A stretch of 64,000 bases of DNA from an uncultured Anaerolineales bacterium (GCA_964482225.1 CAYZWT010000019.1:3909-67908), one strand, 5' to 3'; counted from the stretch's first letter, positions 4,161-49,562 are shown. Made by a program: numbers and translations. The notes: generated by a model from the letters alone, not told the origin.

Positions 4161-4169
4161 TGCTACAAT
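4161..4169 (+). promoter_or_regulatory. extended -10 element (TGcTACAAT) upstream of dnaE
   Basis: TGCTACAAT lies about 150 nt upstream of the dnaE GTG start. The -35 is weak (TTTCGC). Confidence 0.4.
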
Positions 4170-4320
4170 GGTTAGGAAGCGGGCCCACAGACGCGCGCCC
4201 CTCGATCTTTGGCTCGGGCTCCTCACGCGGGCCGAGCGCGCGCCGCCCGGCCCCCTCGGTTCGATCCCCTGCCTGGCGGGCGTCTGCGGTCTGGTAGATA
4301 GAAGAGATGCGGAGGGCGCG

Positions 4321-7300
4321 GTGAGTTCCTTTGTGCACCTGCATGTCCACAGCGAGTTCTCGCTGCTCGATGGCCTGGCCCGGTTGCCAGACCTATGCAG
4401 GCGCGCCAAGGAGCTGGGCATGGAGGCCCTGGCCCTCACCGACCACGGCTCGATGTACGGCGCCATCAAGTTCCACCACGCCGCCCAATCCGCCGGCATC
4501 AAGCCGATCTTTGGCTGCGAGGTCTATCAGGCCCGCCGCCGCCTGCACCAGCGCGACGCCAAGCTGGACGCCCGCTCCTACCACCTGGTGCTGTTGGCCG
4601 CTGACATGACGGGTTATCACAACCTGCTCAAGCTGGTGACCACCGCCCACATGGAGGGCTTTTACTATCGCCCCCGCATTGATCAAGAGCTGCTGGCGGA
4701 GCACAGCGAGGGCCTGATCTGCCTGAGCGGGTGCATATCGGGCCAGGTGGCCTCGCTGGTGCGAGAGGGCCAGCTCGATCAGGCGCGGCGCACCATCGGC
4801 TGGTTCAAGGACCTCTTTGGCCCCGACCGCTATTTCATCGAATTGCAGCGCCATGCGGGTGTGCCCGAGCTGGATCAGATCAATGTCCAACTGGTGGAGC
4901 TGGCCCGCGAGGCCGGTCTGCGCTGCGTGGCCACCAACGATGTCCACTATACCCTGCGCGAGAACGCCTTTGCCCAGGAGCTGCTCCTGGCGTTGCAGAC
5001 CAACACCACCCTCGCGGACCCCAACCGGATGCGCATGGGCAGCGACGACTATTACCTCATGTCGCCAGAAGAGATGCGCCAGGTGATGGCGGACTATCCC
5101 GAGGCGGTGGAGAACACCCTGCTGGTGGCCGAGCAGTGTGATGTGGATTTGGGCTTTCAGGGCTACCGCCTGCCCAAATTTCCCGTGCCAGAGCCCCACT
5201 CGGCGTTCGAGTATCTGCGCAGACTCTGTGAAGAGGGCCTGCGCCGCCGCTATGCCGAGATCACCCCCGAGATCCAGCAGCGCCTGGATTACGAGCTACA
5301 GGTGATCCACGACATGGGATTCGACGACTATTTTCTGATCAACGAGGACCTGGTGCGCTGGGCCAAAAAAGAGGCCGGCATGTTGGTGGGGCCGGGGCGC
5401 GGCTCGGGCGCCAGCAGCATCGTCGCCTATGCCCTGGGCATCACCGATCTGGAACCGCTGAGCCTGGGCCTGATCTTTGAGCGTTTTCTGAACCCCGGGC
5501 GCATCACCATGCCCGATATTGACCTGGATTACCCCGAAGACCGCCGCCAAGAAGTGATTGACTATCTCACACAGCGCTATGGCGCGGACCGCACCTCGCA
5601 GATCGCCACCTTTGGCACCATGGCGGCGCGCGGCGCCATCCGCGATGTGGGGCGCGCGCTGGGCATCCCCCTCAGCGAGGTGGACTATGTGGCCAAGCTG
5701 GTGCCCATGGGCCCCAAAAAGACGATCCAGGACGCCCTGGATAACGTGCCCGAGCTGCGCGAGCTGTACGATTCCAAGCCCTATATCCGCAAGTTGATTG
5801 ATTCCTCCCTGGCGGTGCAGGGGGTCTCGCGCCACTTTTCCACCCACGCCGCCGGCGTCCTGATCGCCGACCGGCCCCTGGTCGAGTACACCCCGTTGCA
5901 GCGCGCCCCCCGGGGCGAGGGGATCATCTCCCAATACTGCATGTCCGACGTAGAGGATATCGGCCTGCTCAAGCTGGATGTCCTGGGCCTTTCGACCCTG
6001 ACGGTGCTGGATCGGGCCTTTGCCTGGATCCGCCGCACCCACGGCATCGAGATCACCCAAGAGACGATCCCGATGGACGATCCCGATAGCTATGCGCTGC
6101 TCTCCTCCGGCGATGTGACGGGCATTTTCCAGGTGGAGAGCGAGGGCATGCGGCGGGTGCTGCGCGACATGCAGCCCACCGAGTTTAGCGATATCATCGC
6201 CATCCTGGGGCTCTATCGCCCCGGCCCCATGGCCTCCATCCCCGAGTACATTGACCGACGCTTTGGCCGCAAGGCCGTCACCTATCCGCACCCCTCGCTG
6301 GAGCCGATCCTCTCCGAGACCTTTGGCATCATCGTCTATCAAGAGCAGGTGATCCAGATCGCCACCGACCTGTCCGGGTTCACTGCCTCTGAGGCCGACC
6401 TGATGCGCCGGGCGATGGGCAAGAAAAAAGCCAAGGACATGGAGCGGCAGGGGAAAAAGTTCGTCGAGGGTTGCGTGGCCAGGGATATCCCCCGCGAGGT
6501 GGCCGAGGCGATCTTTGCCGATATCGAGACCTTTGCGGACTATGGCTTTAACAAATCCCACGGGGCGGCCTATGCGGTCATCACCCTGCAGACCGCCTAC
6601 CTCAAGGCCCACTATCCCGTCGAGTTCATGGCGGCGCTGCTCTCGGTGGAACGCGGCAACACGGACAAAGTGGCCCAGTTCGTGGCCGAGTGTCGCCGCC
6701 TGGGGATCGAGGTGCGCCCCCCGGATGTGAACGCCTCCGGCGTGGATTTCCAGGTGGAGCCGCTACAGTGGCAAACCGTGGCCGAACGCAACGACCTCTC
6801 GGGGGCCGATGGCCTGGCCATCCGCTTTGGGCTGGGCGCCATCAAGAACGTGGGCGATGGCCCCGCTGAGGTGATCGTGCAGGCCCGCGGCCAGGAACCC
6901 TTTGCCGATATCGAGGACCTGATCAACCGGGTGGACCTGCGCCAGGTGAACAAGCGCGTGCTGGAATGCCTGGTGCGGGCGGGGGTGATGGATTCGCTGG
7001 GCGAGCGCAACGCGTTGCTGGCCTCGCTGGATTCGATGATCGCCATCAGCCAGGGGGTACACGGCGCCCGCGATGTGGGCCAGCGCAGCCTGTTCGATCT
7101 CAGCCCCCAAGTCATGGGGCAGGGCGGCGGCGCGCGCTTTCGGCTGGCGGACAACGTGCCCCCGCTGGGCGAAAAGCAGCGCCTGGCCGACGAGAAAGAA
7201 CTGCTCGGCTGCTACCTCTCCTCCCATCCTCTGGATGTGCTGACTCTGTACGAGGACCCGCGCCTGACCGCCATTCAAGACCTGGACCCCTCGCGGGGCG

Positions 7301-7833
7301 ACGAACCGGTCACCGTCGCCGGTCTGTTGAGCGGCATCCGGGCCATCACCACGCGCAAGGGCGATCCTATGGCCTTTGCCCAGCTCGAGGACCTCACGGG
7401 CTCTATCGAGGTAGTGGTATTCCCGCGCACCTATGAACTGGTGCGGGCCAACCTGGATGACGGCGCGCCGGTGCTGATCAAGGGCAAGCTCAACGAACGG
7501 AATGACTCTGTGAGCTTGATCCTGGACGAGCTGGCGCCCTACAGTCTGCCGCCGGGGGCCGCCAAGCGCCAACCTGCCGCGCGCAAGGCCCGGCGCTTGA
7601 CGGTCGAGATCCCCCTGAACGGGGACGACGCCAGCGCAGCCTCTCTCGCCCGCAAGGCCCTGGATATCCTGGGCGAGGCGCCGGGCGACGTGCCTTTTCG
7701 CTTTTGGCTGCGGGCCCCCCAGGGGCGCGTCCAACTCGAATTCCCCCAAGCGACCACGCGCTACTCGCCCCAGTTGGAGCGCCAGCTCAGCGACTTGATC
7801 GGGCGCGAGTGCCTGCACATCGAATGGGCCTGA
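4321..7833 (+). CDS. dnaE: DNA polymerase III alpha subunit
   Basis: PHP domain start SSFVHLHVHSEFSLLDG, palm motif MPDIDLDYP, plus GIFQVESEGM, HGAAYA and a C-terminal OB-fold region. GTG 4321 is preceded by GGAGGG 4 nt upstream. The ORF-track ATG 4168 would add 51 Arg/Pro-rich residues with no DnaE-like character. Confidence 0.95.
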   Translation: MSSFVHLHVHSEFSLLDGLARLPDLCRRAKELGMEALALTDHGSMYGAIKFHHAAQSAGIKPIFGCEVYQARRRLHQRDAKLDARSYHLVLLAADMTGYHNLLKLVTTAHMEGFYYRPRIDQELLAEHSEGLICLSGCISGQVASLVREGQLDQARRTIGWFKDLFGPDRYFIELQRHAGVPELDQINVQLVELAREAGLRCVATNDVHYTLRENAFAQELLLALQTNTTLADPNRMRMGSDDYYLMSPEEMRQVMADYPEAVENTLLVAEQCDVDLGFQGYRLPKFPVPEPHSAFEYLRRLCEEGLRRRYAEITPEIQQRLDYELQVIHDMGFDDYFLINEDLVRWAKKEAGMLVGPGRGSGASSIVAYALGITDLEPLSLGLIFERFLNPGRITMPDIDLDYPEDRRQEVIDYLTQRYGADRTSQIATFGTMAARGAIRDVGRALGIPLSEVDYVAKLVPMGPKKTIQDALDNVPELRELYDSKPYIRKLIDSSLAVQGVSRHFSTHAAGVLIADRPLVEYTPLQRAPRGEGIISQYCMSDVEDIGLLKLDVLGLSTLTVLDRAFAWIRRTHGIEITQETIPMDDPDSYALLSSGDVTGIFQVESEGMRRVLRDMQPTEFSDIIAILGLYRPGPMASIPEYIDRRFGRKAVTYPHPSLEPILSETFGIIVYQEQVIQIATDLSGFTASEADLMRRAMGKKKAKDMERQGKKFVEGCVARDIPREVAEAIFADIETFADYGFNKSHGAAYAVITLQTAYLKAHYPVEFMAALLSVERGNTDKVAQFVAECRRLGIEVRPPDVNASGVDFQVEPLQWQTVAERNDLSGADGLAIRFGLGAIKNVGDGPAEVIVQARGQEPFADIEDLINRVDLRQVNKRVLECLVRAGVMDSLGERNALLASLDSMIAISQGVHGARDVGQRSLFDLSPQVMGQGGGARFRLADNVPPLGEKQRLADEKELLGCYLSSHPLDVLTLYEDPRLTAIQDLDPSRGDEPVTVAGLLSGIRAITTRKGDPMAFAQLEDLTGSIEVVVFPRTYELVRANLDDGAPVLIKGKLNERNDSVSLILDELAPYSLPPGAAKRQPAARKARRLTVEIPLNGDDASAASLARKALDILGEAPGDVPFRFWLRAPQGRVQLEFPQATTRYSPQLERQLSDLIGRECLHIEWA

Positions 7834-7863: not shown

Positions 7864-10773
7864 ATGCAGACGCCAAGCGCGCGTTGCCGGACCATGATCG
7901 GCGTTGCCGCCGGGATCCTCTTGGCCGCCCTGGCTCTGACCATCGCGACCTCCCTGGGCGCTGCCCGCGCGCCGGGGGGCCTGCCCGGCGGCGCCGTGCT
8001 GGCCATTGCCGCACATCCACGCTCGCCAGATACCCTGGTCGCAGCCACAACCCCGGGCCTGTTCCGCAGCCAAGATGGCGGCATGGCCTGGCAAAAGCTG
8101 GCGCAACCCCAAGACCCCGGGCGCATCGGGCAGTTGCTCTTTGCCTCCGATGGCGAGGTGTTGTACGCAGCGGGAACGCTGGGGCTGGCCATGCTGCGCG
8201 ATGGGGAGACCGTATGGCAGCGGGCGAGCGCCCTGGAACAGATCGAGATCGTCGCCCTGGCCGCCAGCCCGCTAGATGGCGCCCTCTATGTGGCGTCGCA
8301 TCGGCAGGTCTGGCGTAGCCCAGATAGGGGCGCAACCTGGGCTGCCCTGGCGGTTCCCGAGGGCGCCGGCGTGATCTCCGCCCTGGCCGCCCACCCTACA
8401 AGCGCCGGGATACTCTACCTGGGCGCCGAGGGCGGCCTATTCGTCTCGGGGGATCGCGGCGCAACCTGGTATCCCGTCCGGCCCGGCCCGATACACCAAC
8501 CGGTCACCTGGGTCGGATTCTGGGAAACGAACGGGACCCGGCGGCTCTATGCCGCCAGCGCCGACGCCCTTTGGCGCTCGGCGGATGACGGCGCCACCTG
8601 GCAATCTGTGAGCCTGCCAAGCCAGATCGTCGTGCAGGAGCAGCCCATACCCTGGAGCGTATCGCCCTTTATGGTTGAGGGGGCATCTGGGCTGCCGACG
8701 CTGGCGCCGGGCGAACGCCTGCTCTCGGCGGCGAGCACAGCCGCAAGCCCGCCCCGCTTGTACCTGGGCACCACGCGCACCTTGTACGCCAGCGCCGATG
8801 GCGGCCGCTCTTGGCGCGACCTGGTAGGGCAGCCGGCAGAGGCAAGCCCGGGGCGCTCGCCTTGGCAAAAGGTCTTGTACGGGCTGCCGCCCTATCTGGC
8901 CGGGGCCGGGCTCATGCTGGCTTTGTGGGGCGCAGGCATGATGTGGCGCGAGCGGCGCGAGGCGCGCAGACAGGCGCTGGATTCGCAAGGCGCGGGCGTC
9001 CGCTGGGATGATATCATCGCCGATGCCCTGCTGCGCCATCAGCGCGTCACGCCCGACCTATTGGAGCGCATTCCGGGCCAGGCCCGAGTGCACGCCATGA
9101 TCCGCTATGTGGACGCCCATCGCGACCAAGCCCTGATCTTTCAAGATGCGCCGCCCCTGATTGCGCCGGCGCGTGGCGATAGACTGCGCGCCTTTGCCGA
9201 TACATGGAACGACCTGACCCAAAAACTGGGCCAACGCGAGGCCGCTGTGGCTGCCGCTTCGCACCTGATCGAACAACTCTGTGGCCTGCTCGGTTTTGAG
9301 CCTGTGGAACGGCGCGTCTATCGCTCGCTGGCAGGCTATATGGTCGAGGCGCCCACCCTGCGGCTCAGCCTGCCCGCGCGCTTTCCGATCATCGTCTTGC
9401 TCAAAGATTCTCTCGAACGCGAGGATGTGCGCGATATCCGCGCCCTGATGTCGGCCCTGAACGCCGTCTCGTTCTTTGCCCTGCTGATCCCCGTCGGCGC
9501 GCCTTTGGATGGCGCCCGCCCGGCGCAGGCAATGCAGGGCCTGGCGCGCGAGGGCGCCGAGGACCTGATCGTCCTGGACTATCGCGAGCTGTACGGGCTG
9601 CACCTGGCCGCCGACGCCGAGTCGGACCTGGTGCGGCGCATCCTGGACCAGGTGGATCTCACCGTCGTATCGCCCTATGTGCTTTCGGGGCCGGTGCCCC
9701 CCAAGATGTTCTTTGGGCGCGATTACGAGATCAAGGTCATCATGCGCACCGTGCAGGATCGCAGCTTTGCCATCGTCGGGGGCCGCAAGATCGGCAAGAC
9801 CTCGATCCTGAACAAGGTACACCGGCTGCTACAGCAAACCGAGGGCTATAACCCCCTCTATCTCGATTGTCACCATGTCACGACCTATGAGGACTTTTTC
9901 GAGGCTCTCTCCGTGATGAGCGAGGTGTCGGCGGAATCCGCGGCGCCCGACATGCTGCGGCGCATCGTCGTGCGCCTGCGCGGGCGCCAGGGCGATCCGA
10001 GCCAGACCCTGGTCTTTTTGCTGGACGAGGTGGATCACCTGTTGCGCTATGACCTCCAACAGGGCACCCTGCTCTTTCGCGTGTTCCGTTCTCTCTCGCA
10101 AGAGGGGCTCTGCCGCTTTGTGTTCTGCGGCGAGCGCACCCTGGATACCGCCCTGCGCGACCCCAGTTCGCCTCTGTTCAACTTTTGCAGCACGCTACGG
10201 TTGGGCTATCTGCAAGAGCGCGATGCAGAGCGGATCGTGCAGGAGCCGATGCAGGAGATGGGCATCACTTTCGAGGCGCCCGAGCTGATACCGCAGGAGA
10301 TCGTGGCCCTCTCAGGCTGCCATCCCAATATCGTGCAGGCCATCTGCCAGTATCTGATCGAGCGGATCAACCAGCGGCAGGAGCGCGTGATCCGCGCCTC
10401 CGACCTGGCCCAGGTGCGCAACTCGACCGAGTTCCGCGATCTCTTTTTCGAGGTGAGTTGGGGGAATGCCACCACGCTGGAGCGCCTGATCACCGTGCTC
10501 ATGGCGGGGCGCGGGCGCTTTGGGCCCCAGCAGGTGCGCCAGGCCCTCCAGGGCGCCAGTATCGCCCTGAGCGACGCCGAGCTAGAGAGCGTTCTGAACA
10601 ACCTGGTGCTCACCTCTCTGATCAAGCGCCAGGGCCAACAACTCGAATACACATCGGCAGCCTTTGCGCGCGTGCTGGAAGAGGCGGGCTTGGCCGAGGG
10701 GTTACGCGATGGCCTGGTGGAAAAACTGCTGGAGGAGCGGAGAGATCACTCGGCAACGCCCAGCCAAAAGTGA
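7864..10773 (+). CDS. membrane protein: signal peptide + Asp-box (BNR-like) beta-propeller + single TM + cytoplasmic STAND/AAA-type P-loop NTPase with helical C-terminus
   Basis: 969 aa. Signal-like N-terminus MIGVAAGILLAALALTIATSLGAARA. Five SxDxGxxW Asp-boxes at aa 69, 151, 194, 238 and 309. TM helix aa ~337-360 (nt 8872-8943). FFGRDYE lead-in, then Walker A GGRKIGKTS (nt 9775-9798) and Walker B LVFLLDEVD (nt 10006-10029). Confidence 0.75.
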   Translation: MQTPSARCRTMIGVAAGILLAALALTIATSLGAARAPGGLPGGAVLAIAAHPRSPDTLVAATTPGLFRSQDGGMAWQKLAQPQDPGRIGQLLFASDGEVLYAAGTLGLAMLRDGETVWQRASALEQIEIVALAASPLDGALYVASHRQVWRSPDRGATWAALAVPEGAGVISALAAHPTSAGILYLGAEGGLFVSGDRGATWYPVRPGPIHQPVTWVGFWETNGTRRLYAASADALWRSADDGATWQSVSLPSQIVVQEQPIPWSVSPFMVEGASGLPTLAPGERLLSAASTAASPPRLYLGTTRTLYASADGGRSWRDLVGQPAEASPGRSPWQKVLYGLPPYLAGAGLMLALWGAGMMWRERREARRQALDSQGAGVRWDDIIADALLRHQRVTPDLLERIPGQARVHAMIRYVDAHRDQALIFQDAPPLIAPARGDRLRAFADTWNDLTQKLGQREAAVAAASHLIEQLCGLLGFEPVERRVYRSLAGYMVEAPTLRLSLPARFPIIVLLKDSLEREDVRDIRALMSALNAVSFFALLIPVGAPLDGARPAQAMQGLAREGAEDLIVLDYRELYGLHLAADAESDLVRRILDQVDLTVVSPYVLSGPVPPKMFFGRDYEIKVIMRTVQDRSFAIVGGRKIGKTSILNKVHRLLQQTEGYNPLYLDCHHVTTYEDFFEALSVMSEVSAESAAPDMLRRIVVRLRGRQGDPSQTLVFLLDEVDHLLRYDLQQGTLLFRVFRSLSQEGLCRFVFCGERTLDTALRDPSSPLFNFCSTLRLGYLQERDAERIVQEPMQEMGITFEAPELIPQEIVALSGCHPNIVQAICQYLIERINQRQERVIRASDLAQVRNSTEFRDLFFEVSWGNATTLERLITVLMAGRGRFGPQQVRQALQGASIALSDAELESVLNNLVLTSLIKRQGQQLEYTSAAFARVLEEAGLAEGLRDGLVEKLLEERRDHSATPSQK

Positions 10774-10976
10774 TGGGGCAGAACGTCGGGCGCGGCCTGC
10801 AGCCGCAAGCCATTGGCGTTGGCTTTTTCCTGCTCCAAGGCGTGCAGGCTCACATAGCAGACATTGGGGCGACGCCCGTACTTGTGCTCATAGTGGCGCG
10901 CGGCCAGCGCGAGCTTGTCCGCAAGGGGGCGGTCTCGGGCATCATCGAACCATAACATGCCAACGCGGAGAGACAT
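10746..10976 (-). CDS. hypothetical 76-aa protein downstream of a LexA-box promoter
   Basis: The ORF MSLRVGMLWFDDARDRPLADKLALAARHYEHKYGRRPNVCYVSL.. has host-like GC3-rich codons. AGGA sits 9 nt upstream of the ATG. Its 3' end overlaps the convergent 7864..10773 gene by 28 nt. No family was recognised. Confidence 0.6.
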   Translation of the reverse strand: MSLRVGMLWFDDARDRPLADKLALAARHYEHKYGRRPNVCYVSLHALEQEKANANGLRLQAAPDVLPHHFWLGVAE

Positions 10977-11056: not shown

Positions 11057-11129
11057 TGTGGATAGAGCCCTGATATGGAACGCGAAACGACGTGCGCCGG
11101 CCGCCCCTAGAACGGTTGTTCTATCCACA
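11057..11129. promoter_or_regulatory. pair of inverted DnaA-box-like 9-mers (CTATCCACA)
   Basis: TGTGGATAG at 11057-11065 and CTATCCACA at 11121-11129. Each has one mismatch to TTATCCACA. The second abuts the -10 of the LexA-box promoter. Confidence 0.4.
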
Positions 11130-11157
11130 GTATATACGAACATTTGTTCGATGTCAA
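11129..11157 (-). promoter_or_regulatory. sigma-70-type promoter with embedded LexA (Cheo-type) SOS box
   Basis: The minus strand reads TTGACA-tCGAACAAATGTTCGta-TATACT. The spacer is 17 nt. The perfect palindrome CGAACA/TGTTCG at 11137-11150 fits GAAC-N4-GTTC. Confidence 0.65.
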
Positions 11158-11229: not shown

Positions 11230-11436
11230 ATCGCCAAGCCGCCAAGCCGGAGAAAAACCGGTTCTGGCTCTCCCCTGCGCGCGTGACGCTCGGAAGCGTG
11301 ACGAGAGATTCCGGAAAGCGACACGAACCCATTTTCATCCTTGGTGGTGCGCTATGCGCATGAGGTCTATTCAGATTTTGGGGGACGAGTTCATGACCGC
11401 GTGTGCAAACAGGTATGCGCGCAAGACGCCCGCCCG

Positions 11437-11615
11437 GTAGGGGCGCGGCATGCCGCGCCCCTACCATAAAACCATAGAAAAACATATTAAACACGTATGG
11501 ACAGAACTGACGCCAGACGCATGTATGCGTCCATAGCGAGGCTGTGTGCTCACCGTTTGCAGGATATTGGCATCACTTCCTGGTCAATTAGGAACTCGTC
11601 CCCTTGAATCTGAAC
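11437..11615 (+). repeat. 28-bp perfect palindrome plus 158-bp interspersed repeat, copy A
   Basis: GTAGGGGCGCGGCA/TGCCGCGCCCCTAC occupies 11437-11464. Positions 11458-11615 align without gaps to 49405-49562 with about 7 mismatches. The repeat contains the hairpin GACGCAT-GT-ATGCGTC and an AT-rich head CCATAAAACCATAGAAAAACATATTAAAC. Confidence 0.9.
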
Positions 11616-14570: not shown

Positions 14571-16277
14571 ATGCAAGCGATGCCCGTTGCGATGGCCGCT
14601 ATCTCTGCCTCCTGGATCGCCTTGGCTCTCTTCTTTCAGGGCCTCGGGACCGCCTTTCTGGCACTAATTCCTTCACGGTACCGCTCTGGATCCTATCTTG
14701 AACATTCTTTTGTTTTTGGATTTTCTTGCCTAGTTATTTTTCTGCAATTATGGAACCTTTTCTTTCCTATTAGCTTTATCGCCTACATACCTCTGATTCC
14801 AATTTCAGCCTGGGGTAATGCTAGATATTACATATCATTACGTGAAACGAGCAGAAAAAGACTCCTGTTTTTATTTCGAGATGCTTTATTCTGGATCGCT
14901 ATCTCTATTCCTCTCTCTAATTGGTCCCTTGCGCATGGTATGCCAGGTGATACTGGTCTCTATCATATACCATTTATGAATTGGGTAAGAACATATCCTC
15001 TTCCAGTTGGGTTGGGCAATCTGCACGGTCGCCTTGCTTTTAATAACTCTTACTATTTATATGGAGCATCTCTATGGAGAATTCCAGGTCTGGATGCAAG
15101 TCATTTATGCCACGGCCCTTTTTTTCTTATTCTATTGCGTATAATCTGTAAAAGTCTATATAAGACTATCTTTTTTGCAGATAAAGTTCGTTTGAGTGAT
15201 TTATTTATTCTGGGGATTTCTCCCTATCTGATTCATCTTACTAGGGGTTATCTCAATAGTTATGCGTCTGATTTGATGGTATTTGTATTATCTGTGTCTA
15301 TTATTGTCATATTCATCGAGTATCTATACGGATCCCAGATTAATCCATATGCTCTTATTTTGCTGTTGTTCATGAGCTTATCTGCTATCATGGTCAAGAT
15401 AAGCTCATTGGGGTTAGTTGGCCCTATATCCCTTCTGGCCCTGATATGGTACATCAAGCGCGGTAACGCCGAAGCTGTTCGAGGCAGGAATCTTGTAGGC
15501 ATCGGAGCTCTATCGTTCCTCGGGTTGTGGGGGTGGGTCTGGAGGAGCGTACTAGCCAGCGGGTATCTTATATACCCCATTTCATGGCTCCCAGTGCCTG
15601 TAAGTTGGCGTGTCCCTTCTGAGAAGGTTGCGGAAGAGGCGCGATGGATTGTCAGTTGGGCACGAGCACCCGGGGAGCATTGGGCCGACGTGTTAGGCAA
15701 CTCGCGGTGGCTCTTGCCATGGATCGAACACCATGTTGCCAGATGGTTTGATGTCTCTTTTCCCGTGGCCCTAGCTGTCCTTATGCTAGTAGTTGCGCTC
15801 CTGAGGAGAGTACTGACGTCGCCTAGCAAGACCGTAAAGGGCAACTTTGCTTTCGCGGCGGTCTTTGTCTCAATTCTTGCCAATATAGCTTATTGGTTTC
15901 TTACAGCACCCGGGAGTCGATTTTCTATTGGTTTATTCTGGTTTTTATTTGCTTTTTCCTTCTCCTCCGCTTTATATTGTGACCAGAGGTGGAGCCGTGG
16001 TATAATTGCCAGAATTGCACTATGTATTACATTGGGGCTTTATATGCCTGTTATACATAGAATGAGTTTCTTTTACGGACCAGAGCAGAGACGTATCACG
16101 CCGACAGTAGAATTGAACGAATTCATCACAGATTCGGGTTTGCTGCTATTTGTTCCTGCTAAGGGGTATTCTTGCTGGGAAAGCCCCTTGCCCTGCACGC
16201 CCTACCCGGACTCCGCGCTGCGTTTGCGCCGATCTGGGGACCTAAGCAGCGGCTTTGAGATACGAGTCAAAGAGTAA
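14571..16277 (+). CDS. polytopic membrane protein, putative O-antigen/oligosaccharide polymerase (Wzy-like) or GT-C-type glycosyltransferase; compositionally foreign
   Basis: 568 aa with more than 10 predicted hydrophobic helices. From ~14700 to ~16200 the G+C drops to about 30-48% per 60-nt line, against the mid-60s in the flanks. It uses AGA/AGG, ATA and TTA codons that are rare elsewhere. Functional call rests on topology and the glycosyltransferase neighbourhood only. Confidence 0.6.
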   Translation: MQAMPVAMAAISASWIALALFFQGLGTAFLALIPSRYRSGSYLEHSFVFGFSCLVIFLQLWNLFFPISFIAYIPLIPISAWGNARYYISLRETSRKRLLFLFRDALFWIAISIPLSNWSLAHGMPGDTGLYHIPFMNWVRTYPLPVGLGNLHGRLAFNNSYYLYGASLWRIPGLDASHLCHGPFFLILLRIICKSLYKTIFFADKVRLSDLFILGISPYLIHLTRGYLNSYASDLMVFVLSVSIIVIFIEYLYGSQINPYALILLLFMSLSAIMVKISSLGLVGPISLLALIWYIKRGNAEAVRGRNLVGIGALSFLGLWGWVWRSVLASGYLIYPISWLPVPVSWRVPSEKVAEEARWIVSWARAPGEHWADVLGNSRWLLPWIEHHVARWFDVSFPVALAVLMLVVALLRRVLTSPSKTVKGNFAFAAVFVSILANIAYWFLTAPGSRFSIGLFWFLFAFSFSSALYCDQRWSRGIIARIALCITLGLYMPVIHRMSFFYGPEQRRITPTVELNEFITDSGLLLFVPAKGYSCWESPLPCTPYPDSALRLRRSGDLSSGFEIRVKE

Positions 16278-49363: not shown

Positions 49364-49562
49364 GTAGGGGCGCGGCCAACGGTGGCGCAACCACCGTCCC
49401 TCGCCCCCTACCATAAAACCATAGAAACACACATTAAACACGTATGGGCAGAACTGACGCCAGACGCATGTATGCGTCCATAGCGAGGCTGTGTGCTCAC
49501 CGTTTGCAGGATATTGGCATCACTTCCTGGTCAATCAGGAACTCGTCCCCTCAATTCTGAAC
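49364..49562 (+). repeat. compound hairpin plus 158-bp interspersed repeat, copy B
   Basis: GTAGGGGCG..CGCCCCCTAC hairpin with inner ACGGTGG-CGCAA-CCACCGT. Positions 49405-49562 align to 11458-11615 with about 7 mismatches. Confidence 0.9.

Follow-up and report, generated by a model that had tools for sequence, protein, structure and literature searches.

From bacteria to plants and animals, innate immunity within the cell has STAND/NLR-type switches at its core. To our knowledge, all of those that have been characterised sense their ligands inside the cell. Here we describe a gene that joins such a switch to a domain predicted to lie outside the cell. It is found in a 64,000-nt stretch of DNA, hereafter the window, from an uncultured Anaerolineales bacterium (Chloroflexota, class Anaerolineae; GCA_964482225.1 CAYZWT010000019.1:3909-67908), and its 969-aa product carries a STAND-type nucleoside triphosphatase (NTPase), a transmembrane (TM) helix and an Asp-box beta-propeller. 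The closest described systems are the nSTAND1 clade (PF20703), defined by Kaur, Iyer, Burroughs and Aravind in 2021, which supplies components of predicted conflict systems (PMC8195603), and the Avs families and bacterial NACHT proteins, which are cytoplasmic and have C-terminal TPR, WD40 or FGE-like sensors that bind phage proteins together with N-terminal effectors (PMC13581612; bioRxiv 10.1101/2022.07.19.500537). In addition, 'transmembrane STAND ATPases' are mentioned in passing, in a recent preprint, as sensors that form fusions with Pepco-associated proteases (bioRxiv 10.1101/2025.11.14.688446).

With the nSTAND1 clade the window protein shares an hhGRxxE lead-in, Walker A and B motifs, a helical GxP domain and a winged helix, as well as soluble relatives that carry caspase, CHAT or kinase domains; it differs in lacking both a C-terminal repeat sensor and any effector-associated, Death-like or TRADD-N adaptor domain, in adding a juxtamembrane domain, a TM helix and a propeller, and in its dnaE-linked housekeeping setting. 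The Avs and NACHT proteins offer a similar division into a recognition part that varies, an ATP-driven oligomerisation switch in the centre and a part for output, but the sole repeat domain of the window protein is predicted to lie outside the membrane, N-terminal to the NTPase, and the gene has neither a match in PADLOC nor a defence island around it. In structure, the module of NTPase, helical domain and winged helix is matched best by Orc1/Cdc6 and the archaeal MNS-clade ATPases (1fnn, 2qby, 2fna, 2qen; PF01637), although identity is only 12-17% and none of them has TM or extracellular parts. Sortilin/Vps10 has the same topology, with a non-cytoplasmic Asp-box propeller, a single TM helix and a cytoplasmic part; its propeller, however, has ten blades, and a short sorting tail takes the place of the NTPase. 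Histidine kinases, chemoreceptors and PASTA Ser/Thr kinases likewise combine an N-terminal hydrophobic segment, an outside sensor, a TM helix and a cytoplasmic transmitter, and their sensors are variable and sometimes absent; here the transmitter would be a STAND NTPase rather than a kinase or methyl-accepting domain, and HAMP, PAS and DHp domains are absent. The Pepco-associated transmembrane STANDs are also membrane-embedded, but they are protease fusions of Actinobacteria and cyanobacteria for which that brief mention describes no Asp-box ectodomain or dnaE linkage.

Our leading interpretation, which we hold tentatively and at somewhat less than even probability, is that the protein is a receptor-like, membrane-anchored ATP switch of the nSTAND1 clade with a fast-evolving external sensor; it is drawn by analogy. 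If it is true, the same STAND switch could read the cell exterior through a large, mostly membrane-anchored branch, along a signalling route other than those of histidine kinases, chemoreceptors, Ser/Thr kinases and pairs of extracytoplasmic-function sigma and anti-sigma factors. Homology searches placed the protein in no characterised family of the same architecture. In the literature, we found no description of an Asp-box-propeller/TM/STAND family, of its juxtamembrane domain or of its dnaE linkage, in a comparison outside which lie the 589 clades of the 2026 STAND phylogeny.

Architecture and predicted topology of the protein

The reading frame is open throughout and holds all the motifs listed in the preliminary description, and the composition of the gene is native (GC 0.66 and GC at third codon positions, GC3, 0.80, matching its neighbours). 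Public gene callers place the start at M11, giving 959 aa (P0001). Because residues 1-10, including the invariant R7, are kept in orthologues that have no Met at position 11, we prefer the start at 7864. From N- to C-terminus, the protein comprises a signal peptide or anchor, a six-bladed propeller, the TM helix, the motif RERREARR, a middle domain, a linker, the NTPase, a GxP helical domain and a winged helix (Table 1); the domain order and STAND-type assignment first proposed hold by Pfam, AlphaFold, Foldseek and a Pfam scan of the relatives. A full-length AlphaFold model built on nine sequences has a mean predicted local distance difference test score (pLDDT) of 74.5, with helices at aa 6-30 and 343-376, the latter a long one that includes the TM segment, blades at aa 45-320 and a well-ordered cytoplasmic part after aa 376. 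The gene encodes a real, conserved and uncharacterised membrane protein of Anaerolineae.

Table 1. Positions of the features discussed in the text. Coordinates are those of the window unless a related locus (L number) is given.
Feature	Position	Strand	Basis
dnaE (DNA polymerase III alpha subunit), co-directional, 30-nt gap to STAND gene	4168-7833	+	PHP, DNA_pol3_alpha, finger, HHH_6 and OB domains
Whole gene: membrane-anchored Asp-box propeller / nSTAND1-type NTPase, 969 aa	7864-10773	+	Open reading frame, Pfam, orthologue alignment, AlphaFold
N-terminal hydrophobic segment, signal peptide or uncleaved signal anchor (aa 11-33)	7894-7962	+	Kyte-Doolittle peak 2.28; AlphaFold helix aa 6-30
Asp-box (BNR / Sortilin-Vps10-like) beta-propeller (aa ~40-322)	7981-8829	+	Pfam, motif scan, AlphaFold, fold matches
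TM helix, G/A-rich (aa ~341-361), then RERREARR (predicted cytoplasmic side)	8884-8946	+	AlphaFold, hydrophobicity, homologue alignment
Juxtamembrane middle domain, winged helix + restriction-endonuclease-like fold (aa 379-597)	8998-9654	+	AlphaFold; no Pfam family
Linker QVDLTVVSPYVxSGPVP..MFFGRDxE, non-globular (aa 596-622)	9649-9729	+	62-sequence alignment; low pLDDT
P-loop NTPase core (aa 613-780)	9700-10203	+	AAA_22 8e-10; nSTAND6/nSTAND1; fold and profile matches
Helical domain with GCHPN (GxP), winged helix, C-terminal helices (aa 785-963)	10216-10752	+	AlphaFold secondary structure
Convergent 76-aa open reading frame, 28-nt overlap with 3' end of STAND gene	10746-10976	-	Conserved in window clade; 26 protein clusters
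Sigma-70-like promoter TTGACA-17-TATACT upstream of the 76-aa frame	11129-11157	-	Consensus match only
AAA_35 gene after membrane STAND gene	L025 9549-11267; L060 7333-8823; also L021, L023-L030, L032-L037, L040, L047, L050		

We found the lead-in FFGRDYE at aa 616, Walker A (GGRKIGKTS) at aa 639-647 and Walker B (LVFLLDEVD) at aa 716-724, as first read. Both Walker motifs are invariant in 9/9 orthologues, among which no degenerate P-loop was seen, and at least 90% conserved over 62 relatives. The tail that had been called winged-helix-like is modelled by AlphaFold as a winged helix at aa 871-929; it is preceded by helices (aa 785-866 in the model) that contain the GxP-type motif GCHPN at aa 818-822, of which H820, P821 and N822 are invariant. 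Against a cutoff of 27.7 bits, nSTAND6 (PF25201) scored 24.6 bits with the full-length protein and 28.1 bits with an isolated fragment, covering the first ~110 NTPase residues only, and nSTAND1 scored 22.7 bits at full length and 26.0 bits with the isolated C-terminal fragment (cutoff 27.1). Among 44 relatives sharing the cytoplasmic module, 32 have nSTAND1 matches (E<1e-4; best 5.5e-19), and precomputed PF20703 matches are present on orthologues. On these profile matches the NTPase is most probably a STAND of the nSTAND1 clade. Foldseek matched the C-terminal module to Cdc6/Orc1 (1fnn, 2qby, 2v1u) and better to SSO1545 (2fna) and PAB2304 (2qen), with TM-scores of 0.63-0.67 on the target, and a profile of the 62 relatives, run against PDB sequences, matched only Cdc6 (7.8e-8) and SSO1545 (9e-5). 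The Orc1/Cdc6 model TIGR02928 gave 17.9 bits against a cutoff of 181.3. The structural likeness to Orc1/Cdc6 reflects the shared AAA+/STAND core.

The ~250-aa region between membrane and NTPase, in which no motif had been recognised, indeed matched no family in a Pfam scan of aa 365-615; it holds a well-folded, conserved 220-aa domain. Modelled in isolation (aa 378-613, 62-sequence alignment), this middle domain reaches a pLDDT of 88.5 and a predicted template modelling score of 0.85, with a winged helix (H-H-β-β), two helices, and then an α-β-β-β-α-β core with an extra α-β. Its PDB matches are weak (TM-score ~0.3; EcoT38I, the Shedu nuclease domain, Rpb5 and winged-helix regulators) and, taken together with the core topology, fit a winged helix followed by a restriction-endonuclease-like fold. 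Its conserved polar residues are R484, R500, R506, D521, D524 and D567, and in the alignment strands 2 and 3 carry no conserved acidic or lysine residue of a PD-(D/E)xK triad. We rejected an active nuclease on the basis of the missing catalytic triad and the weak fold matches. No part of the family is more conserved than the linker that follows: Q596, D598, L599, S603, P604, G609, P610 and V611 are invariant among 62 diverse sequences, and pLDDT falls below 50 over aa 598-616. It could serve as a docking, cleavage or hinge element, and the juxtamembrane domain and linker together may be a candidate coupling device.

For the membrane segments, the preliminary description had proposed a signal peptide and a single TM helix. 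The former holds in part: a positively charged n-region precedes the hydrophobic segment at aa 11-33, whereas cleavage is ambiguous, since longer homologues have AxA-type sites at the equivalent position and the window protein has ARA followed by P, so that an uncleaved anchor is named equally. The TM helix is borne out by strong TM segments aligned with it in homologues, where they sit 17-36 aa upstream of the middle domain; its hydrophobicity in the window protein is moderate (Kyte-Doolittle 1.39-1.45, against 1.7-2.7 at the same position in homologues), and it lacks conserved polar residues of a pore-like kind. The hydrophobic stretch at aa 524-545 (Kyte-Doolittle 1.88) was rejected as a third TM helix, which would put the NTPase outside; both AlphaFold models place it at high confidence in the fold of the middle domain, as a buried helix and strand. 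Hydrophobicity, RERREARR, the AxA sites of homologues and the need for cytoplasmic ATP thus predict that the propeller is outside and the NTPase inside, the latter because an ATPase must be cytoplasmic.

The propeller has the five strict SxDxGxxW boxes previously noted (aa 69, 152, 195, 239 and 310) and a sixth, degenerate box, LRDGETVW (aa 111-118), in the second blade, in which D113 and W118 are invariant in orthologues; the AlphaFold model shows six four-stranded blades. Pfam Sortilin-Vps10 (PF15902) scores 40.9 bits, over a gathering threshold of 33, and Foldseek matched the N-terminal part to PDB entries for GH74 propellers, the BNR protein 3b7f, DAIP and Ycf48. The window clade has a single propeller, and in deeper relatives the ectodomain is of double size, ~650 aa. 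In some dnaE-linked orthologues an external loop of only ~35 aa joins the two hydrophobic segments in place of the propeller; one of them, L018 (5806-7935), also has the cytoplasmic module in full. In the orthologue alignment, the ectodomain is poorly conserved outside the Asp-box scaffold residues. The ectodomain is a variable add-on to a conserved core of membrane anchoring and cytoplasmic module.

These fold matches raise the alternative that the protein is a surface enzyme or assembly factor, with the propeller acting as an F510_1955/GH74-like hydrolase or Ycf48-like chaperone on wall or sheath polymers and the ATPase regulating or localising it. The NCBIfam F510_1955 glycosylhydrolase model (NF045728) matches at E=4e-33 over three stretches, the fold matches include GH74 xyloglucanases, Ycf48 and 3b7f, a putative BNR glycosyl hydrolase, and genes for a sulfatase and for GT4 glycosyltransferases lie downstream. 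The F510_1955 match, however, reaches only 114.7 bits against a cutoff of 175 and reflects scaffold similarity only; the Ycf48 and photosystem II assembly models are also below their cutoffs (PF14870, PSII_BNR, 16.8 against 27 bits; NF010237, 23.6 against 326 bits). GH74 enzymes use two propellers and need the cleft between them for catalysis, and there is one here; Ycf48 is a soluble or lipid-anchored, seven-bladed photosystem II assembly factor, and the host lineage, Anaerolineae, is not known to be oxygenic. Moreover, the poorly conserved ectodomain is absent in some orthologues, and what the family conserves is the cytoplasmic module. We consider a surface enzyme or assembly factor very unlikely.

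Relatives, evolutionary rates and the receptor interpretation

Since words from the Asp-boxes dominate the word index, a query with the full-length protein retrieved just nine full-length relatives out of billions of proteins. Searching with the cytoplasmic module (aa 365-969) against 1.84 billion cluster representatives gave 6254 matches at E<1e-3, 590 of them at E<1e-30; the best 150 span essentially the whole module, in proteins of ~220 aa (fragments) to 2044 aa. We sampled 180 relatives with an assessable N-terminus and counted a TM segment where one lay no more than 70 aa upstream of the middle domain. On this count, 150 (~83%) are TM-anchored, 46 of which also have at least three Asp-boxes, and 30 are soluble. 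Some relatives have up to 18 Asp-boxes and multi-TM N-termini, and ectodomains range from 300 to 1100 aa. The names given to relatives by their sources are only 'hypothetical protein', 'AAA family ATPase', 'PSII stability/assembly factor-like', 'orc1/cdc6' or 'TniB'. With one genome taken per GTDB species, ~45 loci have both middle domain and NTPase; nearly all are in metagenome-assembled genomes (MAGs) of Anaerolineae or other Chloroflexota, each once, and distant relatives sharing only the NTPase occur in several other phyla. The form with TM helix and propeller is a major architectural variant of the nSTAND1 clade. The claim that the device is undescribed therefore needs qualifying: its NTPase falls in a published clade, and the architecture, as the counts above indicate, is a lineage-wide theme and not a one-off.

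The N-terminal domains found by Pfam scan in 44 members with few or no Asp-boxes are caspase (5), CHAT (3), protein kinase (3), TPR/HEAT, PEGA and Tubulin_2. The caspase, CHAT, kinase and DpnII fusions of soluble relatives are the hallmark of conflict systems. Two distant NTPase homologues were observed in defence-like contexts: one on a Sulfitobacter MAG chromosome (L060, 4744-7320), with an N-terminal DpnII endonuclease domain and followed by an AAA_35 gene, and one in Sphaerospermopsis (L081, 2591-8274), directly after a PLD-SNF2 helicase gene.

We compared rates of evolution by per-domain amino-acid identity relative to DnaE, as synonymous sites are saturated at these divergences. Identity to the proteins of the window at the three closest loci is 63%, 45% and 40% for the ectodomain (L008, L007 and L009, respectively), 84%/89%, 78%/80% and 67%/66% for middle domain/NTPase, and 91%, 81% and 81% for DnaE. 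The ectodomain is the fastest-evolving part, well ahead of the cytoplasmic module.

The protein had no significant match in PADLOC-DB v2 (best GajA, E=0.003, P-loop only), and its relatives and their AAA_35 partners gave weak PDC-S matches only. Among IMG/VR viral contigs, 0/56 pattern matches encoded a relative; a phage or mobile origin was rejected on this result and on the native GC and GC3. Identity as an Orc/Cdc6 initiator, as Ycf48, as an F510_1955 hydrolase or as a PADLOC defence protein was likewise rejected, as the thresholds were missed.

Under the receptor interpretation, the NTPase would act as an ADP/ATP switch that oligomerises once freed from auto-inhibition, as in other STAND proteins. 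The trigger would be ligand binding or a change at the external propeller, the ligand possibly being a glycan, peptide or cell-surface component, and the signal would pass from propeller through TM helix to the juxtamembrane domain. The output may be an assembled cytoplasmic platform, possibly on nucleic acid by way of the winged-helix/endonuclease-like domain, and in more distant relatives possibly through the AAA_35 ATPase encoded directly downstream. The role would be one of envelope surveillance (conflict, self/non-self recognition or envelope status) in filamentous Anaerolineae. In favour of this interpretation, the family is mostly membrane-anchored with variable N-terminal or extracellular parts, and the ectodomain evolves fast and the module slowly; the AAA_35 partner gene of related loci and the conflict-type fusions of soluble relatives also point towards it. 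The predicted architecture and topology, the STAND features of the NTPase, and the native composition and dnaE synteny of the gene count on this side too.

Several observations weigh against it. C-terminal repeat sensors typical of STANDs (TPR, WD40, LRR) are absent, as the protein ends ~90 aa past the winged helix, and so is any recognised effector domain or PADLOC match. The window protein scores slightly below the nSTAND1 gathering threshold and has lost two acidic middle-domain residues kept by most of the family (E434A, D546A). Its housekeeping context is atypical for defence genes. Orthologues of the L018 type keep both TM helices without a propeller, which shows that the propeller is not universally required, and effectors fill the N-terminal position in soluble relatives, by which the TM helix and propeller would be effector or anchor and not sensor. 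Finally, the function of the whole family is approached by analogy with other STAND proteins, and so that of every one of its members would rest on the same analogy. Of the outside-in signalling device first proposed, the architecture without a characterised family stands, and the outside-in step itself is conjectural, the propeller being lost in L018.

Another alternative is an inside-out arrangement of the abortive-infection type, in which the cytoplasmic module senses foreign DNA or a phage protein, oligomerisation clusters the TM helices and perturbs the membrane, and the propeller anchors or positions the protein in the cell wall. The caspase, CHAT, kinase or DpnII domain at the equivalent N-terminal position of soluble relatives, the TM anchoring retained where the propeller is lost (L018), the multi-TM N-termini of many relatives and the conservation of the constant module, the most conserved part, all agree with such an arrangement. 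An ectodomain of 300-1100 aa carrying as many as 18 Asp-boxes would, however, be a heavy investment for a mere anchor, and the single G/A-rich TM helix is not pore-like. There is no PADLOC model and no relative among the viral-contig pattern matches, and vertical inheritance beside dnaE in a housekeeping area is unlike the patchy occurrence of defence-island genes. We regard the inside-out arrangement as possible but improbable.

Linkage to dnaE and the neighbouring genes

The position of the STAND gene directly downstream of dnaE was confirmed, and the adjacency is conserved rather than incidental. In ~24 species-level loci, dnaE is directly upstream and co-directional, with DnaE identities from 91% to 49%, the two genes overlapping by 4 nt at one extreme and lying 30 nt apart at the other; ~13 assessable related loci lack this linkage, and there the gene follows Nramp/MgtE or other genes. 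Between the dnaE stop and the STAND start we saw neither a promoter-like nor a terminator-like site, which is weak evidence. The other neighbours in the window are of housekeeping type (oxidoreductases, an M50 protease, a sulfatase and GT4 glycosyltransferases, with sulfatase and GT4 downstream). In the window lineage the STAND gene is most likely vertically inherited, at a single locus and probably co-transcribed with dnaE, and is not a mobile defence-island gene.

Beyond the STAND gene, the 76-aa open reading frame (ORF) that converges on its 3' end matched no family in a Pfam scan; its sequence reads MSLRVGMLWFDD...KYGRxPNVCYV...LPHHFWLG. In one genome (L088, 9001-9240; 3.3-Mb contig) this ORF converges straight on dnaE without an intervening gene, and in another (L089, 9001-9240) it stands beside holA, DUF6391 and priA, after a DUF6504 gene. 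It may be a lineage-restricted, perhaps unrecognised replisome-linked small protein of Anaerolineae.

Such linkage raises a third alternative, namely a role in replication or chromosome housekeeping, in which a membrane-tethered, Orc/Cdc6-like DNA-binding ATPase co-expressed with DnaE anchors or regulates the replisome or chromosome and the ectodomain reports on wall or septum. The conserved adjacency, down to 49% DnaE identity, and the gap without promoter-like or terminator-like site are what this alternative has on the side of gene order, together with the links of the 76-aa ORF to dnaE, holA and priA elsewhere. On the side of the protein, Cdc6 and Orc1 are the closest relatives of solved structure in profile searches, the middle domain resembles DNA binders of winged-helix and nuclease folds, and the cytoplasmic module is about as slow as DnaE among close relatives. 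Gene order alone is no proof of function, however, and it is broken both in the ~13 loci away from dnaE and in L088, where dnaE and the 76-aa ORF have no STAND gene between them; the Orc/Cdc6 threshold is far off (17.9 against 181 bits), and the caspase, CHAT, kinase and DpnII fusions of the broader family point to conflict systems. We therefore consider a replication role doubtful, and decidedly improbable.

The receptor interpretation can also be stated in a stronger form, in which the extracellular propeller directly gates an NLR-type STAND switch that in Anaerolineae is wired to the dnaE operon and, by way of the winged-helix/endonuclease-like juxtamembrane domain, couples surface cues (from the envelope, other cells or invaders) to replication or a DNA response. 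A surface receptor and an NLR would in effect be merged in one polypeptide, as a new class of prokaryotic transmembrane receptor; we hold this form to be unlikely, if still worth considering. The dnaE linkage and the small, putatively replisome-linked ORF give a testable hypothesis tying envelope status to replication in filamentous Chloroflexota, which are little studied and mostly uncultured.

A second ATPase gene accompanies the STAND gene in part of the family. In at least 25 related loci, four of them linked to dnaE and one of them that of Sulfitobacter, the gene that comes next encodes an AAA_35 (PF14516) ATPase of ~500-570 aa, and its start codon often overlaps the STAND stop codon. This conserved two-ATPase module spans several phyla; the partner is absent from the window and its ~20 closest relatives. 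Minus-strand ORFs of 674 aa and 135 aa that appeared conserved downstream of relatives were rejected as antisense shadows of the plus-strand AAA_35 gene.

Other observations in the window

The intergenic region at 10.98-11.55 kb gave no match to an RNA element in Rfam at E≤1. Starting within it, a unit of ~245 bp (11370-11614) is bounded by imperfect 23-nt inverted repeats (TTCAGATTTTGGGGGACGAGTTC and GAACTCGTCCCCTTGAATCTGAA) and holds a perfect 15+15-nt palindrome at 11436-11465; its right arm recurs at 49537-49561. Metagenome contigs L001-L003, which are otherwise identical, diverge in or just past this right arm (window ~11584-11595 on). The unit, which has no Rfam match, looks like a dispersed repeat similar to a miniature inverted-repeat transposable element that breaks assemblies or mediates rearrangement.

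Further downstream, a 568-aa ORF at 14571-16277 (+) adjoins the glycosyltransferase genes; it is assigned to DUF8201 by precomputed annotation and had no match in our Pfam scan. Its composition (GC 0.456 and GC3 0.446, against 0.65 and ~0.8 in its neighbours) gives it a foreign appearance.

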